From Enterobacteria phage vB_EcoM_IME540, in the sequence record MT150133.1: 64,000 nucleotides of DNA; one strand, given 5' to 3'. Every line of letters begins with the position of its first letter. Position 1 is the stretch's first letter. The notes under the pieces are model-generated. The model was not told the DNA's origin. It saw nothing but the letters and a program-made list of their open reading frames with translations, and did no database searches. Shown here one piece after another: positions 5,779 through 64,000 of this stretch. The translations under genes and the position numbers were made by a program.

Positions 5779-6307
5779 TTTGAACCTCTTTAGCGTATTC
5801 GCGACATTCAGTAATAAAACGATTAAGTTTACGTTGTTGTTTACGAATCTCTGATGTATACTCATTGGCTAAAATAATAAGCTCATCTTTATCGTAATTT
5901 TTAATATCCGAATAACTCGGGCGGCGGTCGACCATACCAAAGTGGTCACCATTTTCTAACATCAAATAGCATACTAAATGGTAATCATCGTCGGCATCAA
6001 CAAGCTGTTTATAATCGCTTGGTTCATTTAAAGAGTATACTGAATAGCGTAGCCCAGCGAATTCCACTCGTTGAATAGCCAGATTTACGTCAATAATTTC
6101 TAAAGCATCTGCAAAAGAAAGGTCCTCAGCTAAAGCAAAGATAAAGGGTAATTTGGTAGTATGCCCACGGCTAGATGTTCTGCTTAAGAAATCGTTTGAA
6201 TAACCTAGGTCTTGGCGAATTCTATAAAGAACTGCATTAGTTTCATGTGAAAGACCACTATGTTTAAACCAATCAATATTTGATATCAGGTCGTCGTATA
6301 AACTCAT
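5771..6307 (-). CDS. hypothetical protein, 178 aa, with C-terminal IRKQQRKLNRFITECREY module
   Basis: ORF with RBS GGAGGAGAGGAG upstream of ATG 6307. Confidence 0.6.
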   Translation of the reverse strand: MSLYDDLISNIDWFKHSGLSHETNAVLYRIRQDLGYSNDFLSRTSSRGHTTKLPFIFALAEDLSFADALEIIDVNLAIQRVEFAGLRYSVYSLNEPSDYKQLVDADDDYHLVCYLMLENGDHFGMVDRRPSYSDIKNYDKDELIILANEYTSEIRKQQRKLNRFITECREYAKEVQNA

Positions 6308-8715: not shown

Positions 8716-8790
8716 TGGTATCCCGCCCTGGGATCGAACCAGGACCGCAAACTTAGAAGGATCGTATGCTATCCATTACACCAGCGGGAC
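8716..8790 (-). tRNA. tRNA-Arg (anticodon UCU), CCA encoded
   Basis: Minus strand GTCCCGC...TTCTAAG...CCTGGTTCGATCCCAGGGCGGGATACCA; 7-bp acceptor stem, T-arm CCTGG-TTCGATC-CCAGG, anticodon loop CTTCTAA. Confidence 0.85.
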
Positions 8791-9502: not shown

Positions 9503-9573
9503 TGGCCCTGGGTGGAATCGAACCACCATCCAGCGATTATGAGTCGCTCGCTTGACCGTCCAGCTACAGGGCC
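9503..9573 (-). tRNA. tRNA with CAU anticodon (Met, or Ile if lysidine-modified), CCA not encoded
   Basis: Minus strand GGCCCTG...AGCGA-CTCATAA-TCGCT...GGTGG-TTCGATT-CCACC-CAGGGCC-A. Confidence 0.8.
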
Positions 9574-34651: not shown

Positions 34652-36961
<2,310 letters not shown>

Positions 36962-42859: not shown

Positions 42860-43287
42860 TGTTCCTTATCCCTGATGATTACGAATTAACTCTAGAAAGC
42901 GTAGAGGCCAAAATTCCAGAAGCACAGGGACGTTTTGCTGCTCTTTCTGAAGCGCTCGAGAAAAGCGATATAAATAATCTTGTAGAGAACATGATTGCTG
43001 AAGGCGATATCGAATGTGCTATCGCTCTTGGTTCTTTAAATGAATCAATGGCTCTTAACGAATTTATAGTTAAACACGTTTCCTCTAAAGGTGAGCTTAC
43101 TCGTACTAAAGATATTAAAACCCGTCAACGTAATGCGTTCCAAACGACAGGTTTATCTAAAGCAAAACGCCGTCAGATTGCTCGTAAAGCATCTAAAACC
43201 AAACGTGCTAATCCGTCTACTCAAGTACGTGCCGAACGTAAGCGTAAGAAAGCCCGTTCTAAACGTAAAGCTTTTGGACTCAACTAA
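42859..43287 (+). CDS. 68: prohead core protein gp68
   Basis: 142 aa with basic C-terminus; TAATG-coupled. Confidence 0.8.
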
Positions 43288-43922
43288 TGAAACCTGAATT
43301 GCTCATCGAACATTGGGGACAACCAGGTGAAATTATCGATGGGGTTCCTATGTTGGAATCTCATGATGGAAAAAATTCTGGGCTTGCTCCCGGCCTTTAT
43401 ATAGAAGGCATTTTCATGCAAGCAGAGGTAGTTAACCGTAATAAACGCCTTTACCCAAAACCTATTTTGGAAAAAGCCGTTGCCGATTATATGGCAGAAC
43501 AGGTTGCTACTAAACAAGCTTTAGGAGAATTAAACCACCCACCTCGTGCTAACGTTGACCCTATGCAAGCTGCTATCATTATTGAAGATATGTGGTGGAA
43601 AGGTAATGATGTTTATGGACGTGCACGTATCATCGAAGGTGACCATGGCCCTGGTGATAAACTAGCTGCAAATATCCGAGCTGGCTGGGTTCCTGGTGTT
43701 AGTTCTCGCGGTCTTGGTTCTTTAACTGAAACCAATAAAGGATATAAGCGTGTAAACGAAGGTTATAAATTAACCGTCGGTGTTGATGCAGTATGGGGAC
43801 CATCTGCTCCTGATGCTTATGTAACTCCGAAGCAAATTACAGAATCACAAACGGTAGAAACCGATACCAGTGCCGATGACGCCTTTATGGCTCTCGCAGA
43901 GGCCATGAAAAAAGCGTTATAA
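43287..43922 (+). CDS. 21: prohead core protease gp21
   Basis: 211 aa ...LIEHWGQPGEIIDGVPMLESHDGK...GELNHPPRANVDPMQAAIIIEDMWWKGNDVYGRARIIEGDHGPGDKLAANIRAGW, matches T4 gp21. Confidence 0.95.
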   Translation: MKPELLIEHWGQPGEIIDGVPMLESHDGKNSGLAPGLYIEGIFMQAEVVNRNKRLYPKPILEKAVADYMAEQVATKQALGELNHPPRANVDPMQAAIIIEDMWWKGNDVYGRARIIEGDHGPGDKLAANIRAGWVPGVSSRGLGSLTETNKGYKRVNEGYKLTVGVDAVWGPSAPDAYVTPKQITESQTVETDTSADDAFMALAEAMKKAL

Positions 43923-56758: not shown

Positions 56759-57924
56759 GTTCAAAAACTATGCAGCGTGAAGGCTTTCCTAATATCAGTA
56801 TACGCCTTTACGAAGATTATGACGCCTGGTTAGAGCATCGTTTTGTTGAACTAGGCGCAACATTTACTACCCTAACAATGAGGGACGGTCTTTACGGAAG
56901 TAATGAAGGTTTGCTTCAGTTTTATGATGCAAAGAACCTTCATACCAAAATGGATGGTGAACAGATTATCCAGATTTCTGTTAAGAATGCCAACTCTGAA
57001 CGTACCCAGTCCAGAATTTATGGAAGCAAACACTTTGCAGTAGGAGTGGATTCAAAGGGCGACAATATCATAACAATACAACTCGCCCCAATCCACTTTT
57101 TAGAAAACCTTAAATTTAGTCGTATGTTCTTCCCGAGCGTACAGGAAACATTGACCGAAATGATTGGGGTGATTTATCAAGACCGTCCATTACTTGCTCC
57201 TCCTTTGAACGGGATAAACGTTTATGTTCCTAATGTCCCATGGTGCGATTCGATGGACCGTTATATGGAATTTGTACGTGAGGTAGGTTTGGCCGTTGAA
57301 TCTGATAAGTTTGTATTCGTATGGGAAGATATAGATGGTATTTCTATTATGGACTACGAATTTATGGTTAATCAAGAGCCAATTAATTTTGTGGTAGGTG
57401 AGCCGCGTTTAATAGGCCAATACGTTCAAGATATGGATACTCCTATCGCATTTGATTTTGAATGGTTAACTAAAGCCAACCAGCATTCCAGAAAGCCATA
57501 TGAAAACGCTACTATATACGCCCACTCTTTCTTAGACAAAAACGCCACACGAATTACTTTTGGCGATGGGCAAAACAGTATATTGGTTTCTCGCTCTGGC
57601 GGATATTCCGATTATACCTATCGAAATGGATATGAAGAAGCTGATAGATTAGTTACAATGGCCCAATACGACGGCTACGCGCATTGTAAGGTATACGGTA
57701 ACTTTGAACTAACTCCAGGCGATAAGATTAATTTCTATGACCCTAAAAACCAATTCCAATACGATTTTTATGTAGACGAAGTTATTCATGAAGTGAGTAA
57801 CAATACATCAATTACAAACCTTTATATGTTTACTAATGGTAAGCCTATTAAGATTGAAGAACCACCGAAGGTTAAAAATGAACTTAAAACTGATACTCCC
57901 TATCAAGAAAATAACGCTGGGTGA
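56755..57924 (+). CDS. 27: baseplate hub protein gp27
   Basis: 389 aa; ATGA-coupled; size and position match T4 gp27. Confidence 0.9.
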
Positions 57925-58405
57925 TAAAGAGATTTCTATTCCTAAATTGGGTCTTAAACACCAGAAATTGGTTAAAGATGAAAAAGACCCTTACAAGGCT
58001 CTTCACATATTAATGAATTCCATTTATAAAGATTTATCCGCGGCAGAGACTGATTTTGCCGCTCTTCACCTTTTAGAATTCAATGGAAGATTAAAAAGTA
58101 AAGTAACCAAAGACGGGTTTACTTATAACTTAAATGACCTTTATATTTGCCAACGACTTGAATTCCAATTCCAAGGTAAAACATTTAAATTTAAATCACA
58201 TGAACCATTTCAAACATTTGGGCCTGTTGATAGTGTATTACAGTCCCTTTACCTTGGTGATGATGTACCAGATTTTCTGGATATGCCTGCCTTTGTTGCT
58301 ACATGGGCCGACGATATAACTTCTACTATAGCTATCCCTGGTCCTAATGGTCCTATCAAAGGATTGCTTAAAATCATGGATATCTTAAATGAAGAACGAA
58401 TCTAA
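57878..58405 (+). CDS. 28: baseplate hub distal subunit gp28
   Basis: Start at internal ATG 57878 (RBS AAGG), 175 aa; [28 protein letters not shown]. Confidence 0.8.
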
Positions 58406-60133: not shown

Positions 60134-61222
60134 ATGAAAGTAAAAGAACTTGACTTTGATGTAGCCTCCTTGTTTAAAGGAGGTTCAAAGACCTCCGCAG
60201 GTCAATCTAAAACACCACCAATAAAAACCACGGTAACCGCTCAGTATCCAGCTGAGCGGGCTTCAGGTAATGATACCTCAACCGATATGGTATTAAACGA
60301 CCTCTATAAAAATGGATTGCTTTTTACCGCATATAATTTTAGCTCTCGTGTATCTCCTGATTTACGTAATGACCGTTCGAGTCAAATGACTAAAAAGTTC
60401 TCAAGTGCAGCCAGCAAATTAACAGGCAATAGTGGAACATATAGTGCTGTTAAAAACTTATTTGGTGGAAATACTAAGGGCGTTAAATTTGATAGCCAAG
60501 CCTTAGCCAATATTCTTTTACCTCGTTCTAAATCTGATGTGGATTCCGTGTCACATAAATTTAATGATGTTGGTGAGTCCTTAATTACTAAAGGCGGTGG
60601 TACTGCTACAGGTATTTTAAGTAACGTTGCTAGTACCGCGGTATTTGGTGCATTAGAATCTGTGACTAACGGCGTAATGGCTGATTCAGGCGAACAGATA
60701 TACACTACAGCTCGTAGTATGTACGCCGGTCCGGATAACCGTACTAAGGTATTCACTTGGGAAATGACTCCACGAAATGCCCAAGACCTTATCCAGATTA
60801 TTAAAATATACGAAATCTTCAACTATTATTCTTACGGCGAAACGGGTAATTCGGCTTTCGCAGGTGAATTAAAAGAGAAGATTGATACTTGGTATCGTTC
60901 TACATTTAAAAAAGAAGCTATTGACAAGTTTGATGGTAAGCTATTAGGGGAAAGTATTACAAGCTTCCTTTCTAATGTTATTGTGGTAAGTAACCCAACC
61001 ATTTGGTATATCCGAAACTTTGGTGATAGCAGTTCATATGATGGTCGTGAAGATATTTTTGGCCCATGCCAAATCCAGAGTATCCGTTTTGATAAAACTC
61101 CGGACGGCCATTTTAACGGATTGGCTATTGCTCCTAACTTACCATCTACGTTTAGTTTAGAAGTTACTTTCCGTGAAATTATTACTCTGAACCGTGGCTC
61201 ACTTTATACGGAAGGATTCTAA
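60134..61222 (+). CDS. 48: baseplate tail tube cap gp48
   Basis: 362 aa; RBS AGGA; conserved position. Confidence 0.9.
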   Translation: MKVKELDFDVASLFKGGSKTSAGQSKTPPIKTTVTAQYPAERASGNDTSTDMVLNDLYKNGLLFTAYNFSSRVSPDLRNDRSSQMTKKFSSAASKLTGNSGTYSAVKNLFGGNTKGVKFDSQALANILLPRSKSDVDSVSHKFNDVGESLITKGGGTATGILSNVASTAVFGALESVTNGVMADSGEQIYTTARSMYAGPDNRTKVFTWEMTPRNAQDLIQIIKIYEIFNYYSYGETGNSAFAGELKEKIDTWYRSTFKKEAIDKFDGKLLGESITSFLSNVIVVSNPTIWYIRNFGDSSSYDGREDIFGPCQIQSIRFDKTPDGHFNGLAIAPNLPSTFSLEVTFREIITLNRGSLYTEGF

Positions 61223-62163
61223 TGTATACTTTACAAGAATTTCAGAATCAGGCAATTAATATTGACCTACAAAGGAATAACCTGTTTAGTGTGGTATTTG
61301 CCACAGTTCCTTCTTCTAAATCTCAGACGCTCCTCGACCAGTTCGGTGGAGCTTTATTTAACAATATCCCATTGAATAGCGATTTGTTTGGTATTACACA
61401 AGGAGAGTTGACCCAAGGTGTTACGACATTAGTGACAGCGGGCACTCAGAAGTTGATTCGTAAGTCAGGCATAAGTAAATATTTGATTGGAGCTATGTCA
61501 TCCAGGGTTGTGCAGAGCTTACTAGGAGAGTTTGAAGTAGGTACATATCTGATGGATTTTTTCAATATGGCCTATCCTACGGCAGGTCTTTTAGTCCACG
61601 CCGTTAAAATCCCGGATAATACTTTGAACTATGAAATGGATTTGAACCACAACTCACCTAACATCAAAATTACCGGAAGAGAATATTCTCCATTAGTATT
61701 AAGCTTCCGTATGGATTCTGAAGCTGCTAACTACCGTGCTTTTAATGATTGGGTCAATAGTGTTCAAGACCCTATTACACAATTAAGAGCATTACCGGAG
61801 GATGTTGAAGCTGACATTCAAGTCAACCTTCATTCCCGTAATGGATTACCACATACGGTAGTAATGCTTAATGGTTGCGTTCCAATGAGCGTATCTTCCC
61901 CGGAATTATCTTACGACGGTGATAACCAAATTGCTTCATTTGATGTTACATTTGCTTATAGAAGTGTACAGACTGGTGCAGTTGGCAAACAAGCTGCTTA
62001 TGAATGGTTGGAAGATAAAGTCCTTAAAGGCGTGGCGGGTATAAGTGAGAGCAATTCCCTGAGTTCTTCAGTGGCCAAATTAAGTAGACTTTCAGGAGCT
62101 TCTAGTGGATTAACAGGATTAGTTAATACATTCGGCGGGCGTGCTATTAATAATGGAATATAG
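61222..62163 (+). CDS. 54: baseplate tail tube initiator gp54
   Basis: 313 aa; TAATG-coupled to gene 48. Confidence 0.9.
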   Translation: MYTLQEFQNQAINIDLQRNNLFSVVFATVPSSKSQTLLDQFGGALFNNIPLNSDLFGITQGELTQGVTTLVTAGTQKLIRKSGISKYLIGAMSSRVVQSLLGEFEVGTYLMDFFNMAYPTAGLLVHAVKIPDNTLNYEMDLNHNSPNIKITGREYSPLVLSFRMDSEAANYRAFNDWVNSVQDPITQLRALPEDVEADIQVNLHSRNGLPHTVVMLNGCVPMSVSSPELSYDGDNQIASFDVTFAYRSVQTGAVGKQAAYEWLEDKVLKGVAGISESNSLSSSVAKLSRLSGASSGLTGLVNTFGGRAINNGI

Positions 62164-62175
62164 AGGTTGCTATAA

Positions 62176-62203
62176 CAAAAAAGGAGAGCGTACGCTCTCC
62201 TTT
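62176..62203. terminator. bidirectional terminator AAAAAA-GGAGAGCG-TA-CGCTCTCC-TTT
   Basis: Perfect 8-bp stem flanked by an A-run and a T-run between convergent genes. Confidence 0.65.
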
Positions 62204-62209
62204 AGGGGT

Positions 62210-62500
62210 TTATTTACGGAACGAAATGAAACCTGCTGCAGTCATTAGTGGTTGCTTTTTAACAAACACCGTGACTGAAATAGGAGCTTCAGATTCGAGT
62301 TGTCCTGTCACTACACCATTAAAGATATTTTCAGTTTGTTCCGGCTGAGAAAAGTTCTCAACAGGACGGATATCAAATTGCTTATCTTCACCGAAAACTC
62401 GACGCAATTCATTACCAACTGCACTGTCAAACTCTTCGGAAGCAGGGATAACGTTTTCAACTACCAGTTCTTGACCATTAAAACGGAATGCAGATTTCAT
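62210..62500 (-). CDS. hypothetical protein, 96 aa
   Basis: ATG 62500 with RBS GAGGAG in conserved leader ACACAAACATGAGGAGAACATT. Confidence 0.5.
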   Translation of the reverse strand: MKSAFRFNGQELVVENVIPASEEFDSAVGNELRRVFGEDKQFDIRPVENFSQPEQTENIFNGVVTGQLESEAPISVTVFVKKQPLMTAAGFISFRK

Positions 62501-62528
62501 AATGTTCTCCTCATGTTTGTGTAAGGTA

Positions 62529-62558
62529 ATAGTAACACCATCCTTGGCGTTTGTAAAC
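62529..62558 (-). promoter_or_regulatory. early promoter (-35 GTTTAC, 18 bp, -10 TACTAT) with conserved leader
   Basis: Minus strand GTTTACAAACGCCAAGGATGGTGTTACTATTACCTTACACAAACATGAGGAGAACATT-ATG. Confidence 0.5.
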
Positions 62559-64000
62559 TACCCTTGTACAAATTTATATTGGAGAGCGTCGATATCTATA
62601 CAAGAAGCTAACAAGCCAAGACCTCTGTCTGAGTTCTTTTTCTTCTCATTAGAAACAAATGAATCAAAAGAAAGCTCACCACCATCTTTATAGACAACGA
62701 GTTCTCCTGTTTCCATTAGGGCATCACCGTCGTATACTACAGCTTCATTAAGTTCATCTGCAGTCATTACTTCGGCTTGAATAAACTTATTGTTAGAACG
62801 AGTAGTCCCGTTGTTATATGAGGCATCTGTAATTTTATTGATTTTAACCATCAACCCTCTAGGAAGAATTACTTCCATTTCGTTAGAAGGGGCTAGGTCT
62901 CCACCAGGTAAAACGACATTTACTTTATTAGCACCAGTAATGGCCCAACCGATACCTACTAAGGTATCTTTAACTGAATATACCAAGCCTTCATCAGATT
63001 TATCTAAAGCAACATCTCGACGCTTTTCATCAGGTAAAACACCAACACCAGAATCAGTCATCCATGTACCAAAAATATTTGGATAAAGTGATGTTGATAC
63101 AAAGTTCCTGAAATAGAATACTTTGTTTTTAACCATAGCCAGGTAAATATCAGGAATCATTCGTTGAGAACGATAAAGCGTGATACCTTCCGGAAGTTGT
63201 TCACCATTTTCAAAAGCAGAATCTAAGTTATTGATAGCTTTTTCTATCTCTTCATTAGTCAAAATACTGGTTCTTGTATTAGGGTCGCGGATTCCTAAAA
63301 GAACATTATTCATATCTTCGTAACCGGAGCCAACGTATTCACGAATACCACGCTTCTGTGCTGGTGTATAACGAGATACGTCTTTATTTTCTACAATAGA
63401 ATGTAATTGCCAACCCGCGGTAAGAGCATAAACACGCAGTTCGCGCTGAATAATTTTGGTCTTTATAGCATTCCAAGAATTTTCGGCTAACTCTATGGCT
63501 TCGTGATAACCTAAGTGAGAATGCCAGGCCATTAGTTTTTGAAGCCAAGGGCCTTTATATTCTTCGATGACATCATCAACCACTGAAGCATAATTTTCTA
63601 GAGCTTTTACTGAAGTCACATTTAATCCATGTAATTTCTCAAAAGCTCTCATTTTTATGTCGGTATTAATTTCTTCCATTTTATCTTCTGGAATAAGAAG
63701 GTTGTCTTTAAACGACATACCGCCGGTATTAGCACTAATGGTATTTTCTAAAGCCAAGAAAGAATTAGAAATAACCTTTATTTCATTTGCTTCCGGCATT
63801 AAAGGACCTGTAGCAGGTTTATTCAATTCGACAGCATTAGACTCAAATTTCTTAAACATTGGAGTTTCGAAACGAGATGATTCTAAGGATTGCGACATAG
63901 CAATAGCACGACGTGAAATCTTAGTCTTGGTAATGACAGCCTTATCAGTACGTTTCTCTTCAACTTTAGCTATACTTGCCGAGACGGCTTCGGCCTTACT
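62558..64000 (-). CDS. alt: Alt-type ADP-ribosyltransferase, C-terminal ~480 codons; start lies beyond the window end
   Basis: Frame open from 64000 to stop at 62558; R-S-E ADP-ribosyltransferase triad candidates LYRSQR, FVSTSL, EMEVIL; position next to 54 as in T4. Confidence 0.75.
   Translation of the reverse strand, partial: SKAEAVSASIAKVEEKRTDKAVITKTKISRRAIAMSQSLESSRFETPMFKKFESNAVELNKPATGPLMPEANEIKVISNSFLALENTISANTGGMSFKDNLLIPEDKMEEINTDIKMRAFEKLHGLNVTSVKALENYASVVDDVIEEYKGPWLQKLMAWHSHLGYHEAIELAENSWNAIKTKIIQRELRVYALTAGWQLHSIVENKDVSRYTPAQKRGIREYVGSGYEDMNNVLLGIRDPNTRTSILTNEEIEKAINNLDSAFENGEQLPEGITLYRSQRMIPDIYLAMVKNKVFYFRNFVSTSLYPNIFGTWMTDSGVGVLPDEKRRDVALDKSDEGLVYSVKDTLVGIGWAITGANKVNVVLPGGDLAPSNEMEVILPRGLMVKINKITDASYNNGTTRSNNKFIQAEVMTADELNEAVVYDGDALMETGELVVYKDGGELSFDSFVSNEKKKNSDRGLGLLASCIDIDALQYKFVQG

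Follow-up and report, generated by a model that had tools for sequence, protein, structure and literature searches.

We examined 64,000 nucleotides (nt) of DNA from Enterobacteria phage vB_EcoM_IME540 (sequence record MT150133.1), a stretch referred to as the window throughout, and concentrated on alt', the gene that runs off its far edge on the minus strand (62558..64000). Judging from its sequence, the product of alt' is very probably an arginine-specific mono-ADP-ribosyltransferase of the R-S-E (Alt/VIP2) clade. As such, it is a close, ordinary and previously annotated member of the T4 Alt family, already known as alt' in phage Bp7 and as "ADP-ribosylase" in IME540. At the sequence level, we show that the gene belongs to this family, keeps an intact catalytic triad, lies in the T4 gene order, carries a conserved C-terminal processing motif and has a tandem paralogue in its closest relatives.

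Family assignment and catalytic residues

In the translation of the window, the minus-strand frame that starts at 64000 is free of stops down to a TAG at 62558-62560, that is, over 480 codons plus the stop. These are codons 204-683 of a 683-codon Alt-like ADP-ribosyltransferase gene (its 3' 70%), with the 5' end beyond the window. Full-length residue numbers follow FB_0198 of Escherichia phage vB_EcoM_FB (683 amino acids [aa]), whose codons 1-203 correspond to the part beyond the window edge. The DNA of alt' is 99.8% identical to FB_0198, and the two proteins differ at a single residue, position 362, which is W in the window and R in FB. The last 2 kilobases (kb) of the window are likewise 99.8% identical to FB, the only record in the phage collection at 99% identity or more over this region, and share 92.8% identity with phage Bp7; over the last 24 kb, identity to Bp7, FB, QL01, WG01 and their relatives is 97%. 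The window is therefore from a Dhakavirus, a T4-like coliphage (Straboviridae, Tevenvirinae) of the genus that holds FB and Bp7. A mechanical list of open reading frames (ORFs) gives alt' only as an internal-ATG form (62558..63898, 446 aa), as the list omits ORFs cut by the window edge; the plus-strand ORFs within alt' (98, 63 and 47 aa) had no PHROG match.

A preliminary description, made from the letters alone, had proposed an Alt-type ADP-ribosyltransferase (ART) at the window edge and had named an ART profile search among the ways to check it. In that search, Pfam PF03496 (ADPrib_exo_Tox) matched the alt' fragment with an E value of 1.6e-29 and 103 bits, against a cutoff of 23.4, over fragment residues 174-412, which span all three of the motifs discussed below; this places the ART catalytic domain, of the R-S-E clade and Alt/VIP2 type, at 62765..63481 (minus strand). 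The fragment also matched PHROG 802 ("Alt-like RNA polymerase ADP-ribosyltransferase") at E=2.1e-140, and the full-length FB copy matched it at E=1e-254 with residues 1-682 covered. The FB gene has PF26846, the Tevenvirinae_ADPRT N-terminal domain, on record; the window carries codons 204-683 only. FB_0198 and T4 Alt are collinear, with 59% identity over 691 aligned positions, and the similarity is higher toward the C terminus: identity to T4 Alt is ∼75% over the 310 C-terminal residues of the window protein and 80% over the ART core of alt' (residues 401-620). With these matches, the collinearity, and the catalytic residues and gene order kept, the proposal holds.

The same description had singled out LYRSQR (63161-63178), FVSTSL (63086-63103) and EMEVIL (62864-62881), all on the minus strand, as candidate R-S-E elements. 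Each occurs once in the translation, and they align with the R, S-T-S and E-x-E elements of T4 Alt. The first contains the predicted catalytic, NAD-binding Arg (GITLYRSQR; 63170..63172, minus strand; R277 of the fragment, R480 at full length), aligned with the Arg of "IITYR" in the toxin BECa. The second, in FYFRNFVSTSL, holds S505-T506-S507 (63089..63097, minus strand) within the PF03496 match. For the third, EMEVIL was correctly picked; it is, though, a complete E-x-E (E577-M-E579 in SNEMEVILPRG; 62873..62881, minus strand) rather than a single Glu, and this predicted catalytic Glu pair aligns with E-Y-E of BECa. In the full-length alignment, in which the loss of the catalytic Glu or Arg was to count against the assignment, both are retained: R480, S505-T506-S507 and E577/E579 of FB align with R478, S503-T504-S505 and E574/E576 of T4 Alt, and the surrounding blocks GITLYRSQRM, FYFRNFVSTSLYPNIFGTWMTDS and LAPSNEMEVILPRGLMVK are letter-for-letter equal in alt' and T4 Alt. 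The E-x-E pair is the signature of arginine-specific transferases in the R-S-E clade and predicts arginine specificity for alt'.

A search of the PDB with the single full-length FB sequence returned no match, and neither did a search of NCBIfam. A profile built from seven Alt modules, by comparison, matched BECa, C3-like, Certhrax, VIP2, CDTa and iota toxins in the PDB, down to E=1.3e-8. In the profile alignment, the Arg of ITLYR falls on the catalytic Arg of the toxins, and the E-x-E of Alt falls on theirs.

Conservation across the locus bears on whether alt' acts as an enzyme at all. In an alignment of 11 alt-locus paralogues, the Arg, the first Ser and both Glu residues are invariant, although ART cores in this set fall to 31-39% identity; positions 506 and 507 of the S-T-S element show one Ala substitution each. 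Such invariance amid this divergence is the pattern expected from selection on catalysis. T4 Alt has also been described as a head core protein beside its enzymatic role (PMC11404850), and one could imagine alt' as a structural part of the head core that has the ART-like fold but no catalytic activity. With the catalytic residues intact and so widely conserved, we consider this highly improbable.

Predicted processing and packaging of alt' and its integrity

What alt' may do in the infected cell is best approached from T4. T4 Alt is incorporated into the prohead core, is present at ∼40 copies per head and is ejected with the DNA (PMC9026906); upon injection, it modifies RNA polymerase (PMC10468400), and it ADP-ribosylates other host proteins too. 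The gp21 protease trims it at ITE-6 and LTE-619, taking 6 residues off the N terminus and 63 off the C terminus, and cleavage at LTE-619 was demonstrated by mass spectrometry (PMC5694885). Aligned with L-T-E 617-619 of T4 Alt, alt' has L-N-E (62744..62752, minus strand), a predicted prohead-protease motif with the cut after Glu622. From this alignment we infer cleavage at LNE-622 in IME540 alt', and the predicted C-terminal propeptide would comprise 61 residues (62561..62743, minus strand), the homologous propeptide of T4 Alt having 63 (PMC5694885). At the other end of the protein, the N terminus of the FB copy, MENLNE (LNE-6), aligns with MELITE (ITE-6) of T4, so that processing motifs are found at both ends.

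Within the C-terminal tail, the string YDGDxLMETGE is invariant across all four module types described below. Its LMETGE part was considered as the C-terminal protease site and dropped, as the published LTE-619 aligns with the LNE 11 residues upstream (PMC5694885). A candidate for the protease itself is encoded at 43287..43922 (plus strand, 211 aa), which we take as the equivalent of gp21 by position only, in the order gp20, gp67, gp68, gp21, gp22, gp23; Bp7 annotates a "head maturation protease" at the syntenic place.

On the T4 model, alt' would be made late, probably cotranscribed with an upstream alt gene, and its N-terminal part would take the protein into the prohead core, where the prohead protease would trim it after LNE-6 and LNE-622. 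The head would retain a few tens of copies and inject them with the DNA. Once in the cell, alt' would use nicotinamide adenine dinucleotide (NAD+) to ADP-ribosylate arginines of host proteins, notably Arg265 of one RNA polymerase alpha subunit, and this modification would favor phage early promoters. We regard this mechanism as the best explanation for alt', with packaging and RNA polymerase as a target being probable, if held with somewhat less confidence than the enzyme assignment. Activity, packaging, injection and targets are thus all predictions for alt' by analogy with T4.

Several observations weigh against this account or against parts of the assignment on which it builds. The mechanism rests mainly on work in T4, and the N-terminal 203 codons, on which packaging and injection depend, lie outside the window and were viewed only in FB, whose copy is 99.8% identical. 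Residues 271-400, which link the N-terminal part to the ART core, share only 51% identity with T4 Alt, and the targets of the two enzymes may therefore differ. Structure prediction lent no support: AlphaFold2 gave unusable models both for the 480-aa fragment with an 18-sequence alignment (mean predicted local distance difference test score [pLDDT], 35.6) and for the 261-aa ART core with 48 sequences (mean pLDDT, 36.3), the available homologues being too alike (68-94% identity) to help. There is also a discrepancy in numbering, in that the T4 Alt mutant published as catalytically dead is called "E577A" (PMC11404850), a position that does not match the glutamates of T4 Alt as counted in RefSeq NP_049811, E574 and E576. 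Lastly, the IME540 deposit gives the gene product only 446 aa, from an internal ATG, so that the source genome could hold a broken or split alt'.

This last point deserves a closer look. The 446-codon ORF of the window has a 100% identical counterpart deposited for vB_EcoM_IME540 as "ADP-ribosylase" (QJA42731.1, 446 aa, starting MSQSLESS). In FB, in-frame Met codons are found at residues 108, 121, 137, 149 and 175, and a gene caller would therefore pick M238 only if a lesion lies at most ∼84 nt past the window or if the record ends there. Accordingly, the 446-aa annotation reflects either a lesion within ∼84 nt beyond 64000 or a deposited record that was linearized inside alt'. Were alt' truncated or split, only the C-terminal 446 residues would be made, from the ATG at 63898, and the product, without its N-terminal packaging part, would not be packaged in the head; it would be a cytoplasmic late enzyme or the gene a decaying pseudogene. 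Besides the identical 446-aa deposit, decay of alt copies in the second slot of other phages (the alt.-1/alt.-2 remnant of T4 and the split copy of sb1, both described below) speaks for such a truncation, as does the natural split into 229 and 463 aa in Acinetobacter phage ZZ1 (PMC4177764). However, no stop interrupts the 34 codons between the internal ATG at 63898 and the window edge, which agree with FB; the genes of FB and Bp7 are intact, at 683 and 684 aa; and the 446-aa call may be an artifact of linearizing a circularly permuted genome, if the record ends there. On balance, we think a truncated alt' unlikely and retain the full-length, T4-like enzyme as the preferred interpretation.

Tandem paralogues and the mosaic alt locus

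In FB, as in Bp7, a second full-length Alt-like gene of 694 aa precedes alt' across a 3-nt spacer (stretch L001, 8614-10698; coordinates in other phages refer to separate stretches, L001 for FB, L003 for T4, L005 for T2 and L006 for sb1). Bp7 names the copy on the ligase side alt and the one on the gene 54 side alt'. By sequence and gene order, the window gene is alt', the gene 54-proximal member of the pair, and the slot-equivalent of T4 alt would lie just past the window. Residues 1-63 of alt' align with T4 alt.-1, and residues 65-115 align with T4 alt.-2. T4 keeps only this decayed stump in the alt' slot, in agreement with the T4 record's own notes. Earlier publications remark on the duplicated Alt of Bp7 and JS98 (PMC4177764) and, in 2006, on alt paralogues of further T4-like phages (PMC1524935).

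FB alt is preceded by a terminator and a CATAAATA late-promoter-like site, whereas the late-promoter core TATAAATA was found 0 times within 62000-64000. In its visible part, alt' thus appears to have no late promoter of its own. Taken together with the 3-nt spacer, these features suggest that alt and alt' are probably cotranscribed late. As a separate observation, the T4 late-promoter core TATAAATA is enriched over the whole window, with 20 sites observed against 7.6 expected and no shuffle reaching 20. The sites cluster on the plus strand in the structural-gene region at ∼36-47 kb, with examples at 36452, 36954, 38350, 39142, 40363, 40667, 40984, 42969, 43918, 44642 and 46731.

The two Dhakavirus paralogues differ unevenly along their length: identity between FB alt and alt' is 69% over residues 1-200 but drops to 34% over residues 271-400, with 60% across the ART core. 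Judging from the alignments, alt' carries a T4-like enzyme module, while the slot-equivalent of T4 alt, FB alt, carries a T2-like one. It is possible, though less likely than not, that alt' is an active, injected enzyme with host targets unlike those of the neighboring alt and perhaps of T4 Alt, the pair forming a small effector repertoire in which, for example, one enzyme would act on transcription and the other on translation or host defense proteins. In addition to the uneven divergence of the FB pair, the number of module types and of gene copies at the locus in different phages (see below) fits such a division of labor. Yet, the ART core of alt' is 80% identical to that of T4 Alt, which makes shared targets the simplest expectation. 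The idea of distinct targets refines rather than contradicts the T4-like mechanism that we favor.

Comparison of the locus across T-even-type phages puts alt' into a broader perspective. Copy number ranges from one to three, with one gene plus a stump in T4, two genes in T2, FB and Bp7, and three in MX01 and AnYang. Segment identities over 11 paralogues show that the N-terminal ∼236 residues are specific to genus and slot: residues 1-200 of alt' are 95% identical to the second MX01 gene, 90% to the third, 69% to the companion alt and 40% to T4. The enzyme part, by contrast, falls into at least four types that are shared across genera. One comprises FB alt and the first genes of MX01 and T2 (MX01-1 and T2-1; 93% identical in the ART core); a second comprises the window alt', Bp7 alt', T4 alt and sb1 (80%); the third is MX01-2 alone; and the fourth comprises MX01-3 and T2-2 (58%).

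The breakpoints between these parts were located by codon-aligned, sliding DNA identity between alt genes. Between alt' and MX01-2, DNA identity is 90-97% in codons 1-146 and 72-82% up to ∼codon 236; it falls to 32-48% from codon 237 to ∼codon 496 and then recovers in part, to 42-71%. The end of the genus- and slot-specific part, codons 204-237, is still visible in the window (63899..64000, minus strand), followed by the switch to the exchangeable module at ∼codon 237. From this pattern, alt' looks like a chimera of a Dhakavirus slot-2 N terminus and a T4-type module. T4 alt (stretch L003, 6455-8503) and the first T2 alt (stretch L005, 3379-5472) make the same point: their DNA is 95-99% identical to ∼codon 236, 35-78% identical to ∼codon 613 and 93-98% identical thereafter, which indicates that the catalytic module differs between the classic Alt enzymes of T4 and T2 but occupies the same frame. 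The downstream breakpoint of this pair lies close to the published C-terminal cleavage site, so that the mature enzyme module looks exchangeable between an N-terminal part and a C-terminal propeptide that are near-identical. The reverse is seen between FB alt and T2-1, with 41-67% DNA identity in the N-terminal part and 83-96% in codons 407-613, a pattern suggesting that the enzyme module was exchanged across genera fairly recently.

Most Dhakavirus contigs with an identical alt.-3 hold a 707-aa gene of another type in the alt' slot, and the alt' module of the window was found at 90% identity or more in only four phage records. A search with the C-terminal 310 residues of alt' gave 1803 places in 1222 records of the phage collection. 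The second slot may also decay: in Shigella phage sb1, its alt is split into ORFs of 177 and 415 aa within a gene of normal length (stretch L006, 5446-5979 and 6256-7503), and in T4 it is cut down to the two short ORFs alt.-2/alt.-1 (stretch L003, 6066-6451).

The mosaic pattern is plain in the alignments. What it means is less firm, and we put forward as tentative, with not quite an even chance of being right, that the alt locus is a cassette system for injected enzymes. Such a system would consist of one to three tandem genes, each with a slot-specific N terminus of ∼236 residues (plus, in T4 and T2, a conserved C-terminal propeptide) and an ART module of ∼380 residues that is exchanged by recombination, both inside a genus and across genera; alt' would be one chimera among others, and the paralogues would have distinct host targets. 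The functional diversification of targets and a role of the flanks as packaging adaptors are the parts of this proposal that we infer. As a gene call, alt' matters little, Alt being among the longest-studied phage effectors. On the other hand, if this phage group does inject two different Alt enzymes, results obtained with T4 alt mutants may not be directly transferable to it. Further, the breakpoints suggest that phages shuffle their injected effectors, and, being sharp, they offer natural junctions for building chimeric head-delivered enzymes.

Gene neighborhood and comparison with known systems

The preliminary description placed the gene next to gene 54, as alt is in T4, which is correct, with alt.-3 lying between the two in both phages. 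The gene 54 homologue (61222..62163, plus strand), encoding the baseplate tail-tube initiator, is 64% identical to T4 gp54 (E=1e-146) and bears the same annotation in Bp7. The alt.-3 homologue (62210..62500, minus strand; 96 aa, DUF5498) matches Pfam PF17602 at E=2.6e-34 and is 58% identical to T4 alt.-3. These two convergent genes are separated by an intrinsic-terminator hairpin (62180..62203, minus strand; 10 pairs and then a T-run in the terminator scan). The only Rfam matches at 62171-62234 (minus strand) were STnc390 and MicX, at E=0.2-0.3 and far under their gathering scores; both coincide with the terminator hairpin and are in all likelihood chance matches.

Directly between the alt' stop and alt.-3, a promoter scan gave a site resembling sigma-70/T4 early promoters by consensus match only (GTTTACA-17-TACTAT with an upstream TG; 62529..62557, minus strand). 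T4 has an equivalent GTTTACA ... TATAGT element before its alt.-3 (stretch L003, about 6060-6100, minus strand). This suggests that alt.-3 may be expressed early, independently of the late alt genes. In T4, the genes follow one another as 54, alt.-3, alt.-2, alt.-1, alt, alt.1 and gene 30, and FB and Bp7 continue past alt' with alt, alt.1 and ligase; the Dhakavirus order 54, alt.-3, alt', alt, alt.1, ligase is thus that of a T4-type locus.

Elsewhere in the window, tRNA-Arg (TCT) and tRNA-Met (CAT) genes were found at 8716-8790 and 9503-9573 (minus strand). At 189 aa, the longest ORF of the gp28 homologue (57836-58405, plus strand) shares 89 nt with the end of the gp27 homologue. Relatives are annotated with different lengths (FB, 152 aa; others, 175 or 189 aa), and the true start of the gene is uncertain.

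Among known systems, the closest relatives of alt' are its orthologues in Bp7 (YP_007004248) and FB (FB_0198), which are 94% and 99.8% identical to it and occupy the same position in the same tandem with alt; unlike the window gene, Bp7 alt' has Ala at the third position of S-T-S. T4 Alt (NP_049811, 682 aa) belongs to the same length class, is collinear with alt' with processing motifs at aligned positions, and lies at the same locus, between gene 54/alt.-3 and alt.1/gene 30. However, its N-terminal 200 residues are only 40% identical to those of alt', and T4 is without a second full-length alt gene, alt' sitting where T4 has the alt.-1/alt.-2 remnant. T2 genes 265/266 and MX01 ORF194-196 share with alt' the Tevenvirinae_ADPRT N terminus, the ART domain and the C-terminal tail, as well as the R/S/E-x-E residues and the tandem locus; their modules are of other types, 31-39% or ∼60% identical to that of alt'.

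More distantly, the toxins iota Ia, CDTa, VIP2, BECa and Certhrax share PF03496 and the R-S-E arrangement with alt', the Arg and the E-x-E being aligned, although this similarity (E=1e-8) is reached by a profile only. They are bacterial exotoxins that rely on a separate binding component, act in eukaryotic cells and modify mostly actin or Rho, whereas Alt reaches a bacterial cell from within a phage head. Like Alt, T4 ModA and ModB belong to the phage ARTs of the R-S-E clade, and they modify the transcription or translation machinery of the host (PMC10468400). Unlike Alt, they are small (∼200 aa), expressed early, not packaged in the virion and encoded at a different locus, and neither was among the matches of the searches run with alt'. 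In the way that it is delivered, Alt has its counterpart in the T4 internal proteins IPI-IPIII, which are head-packaged, protease-trimmed and injected and combine a conserved targeting part with a variable mature part (PMC9026906). Those are small basic proteins outside this enzyme family, with a targeting peptide of 10-19 residues, and Alt, unlike them, additionally loses a C-terminal propeptide (PMC5694885).

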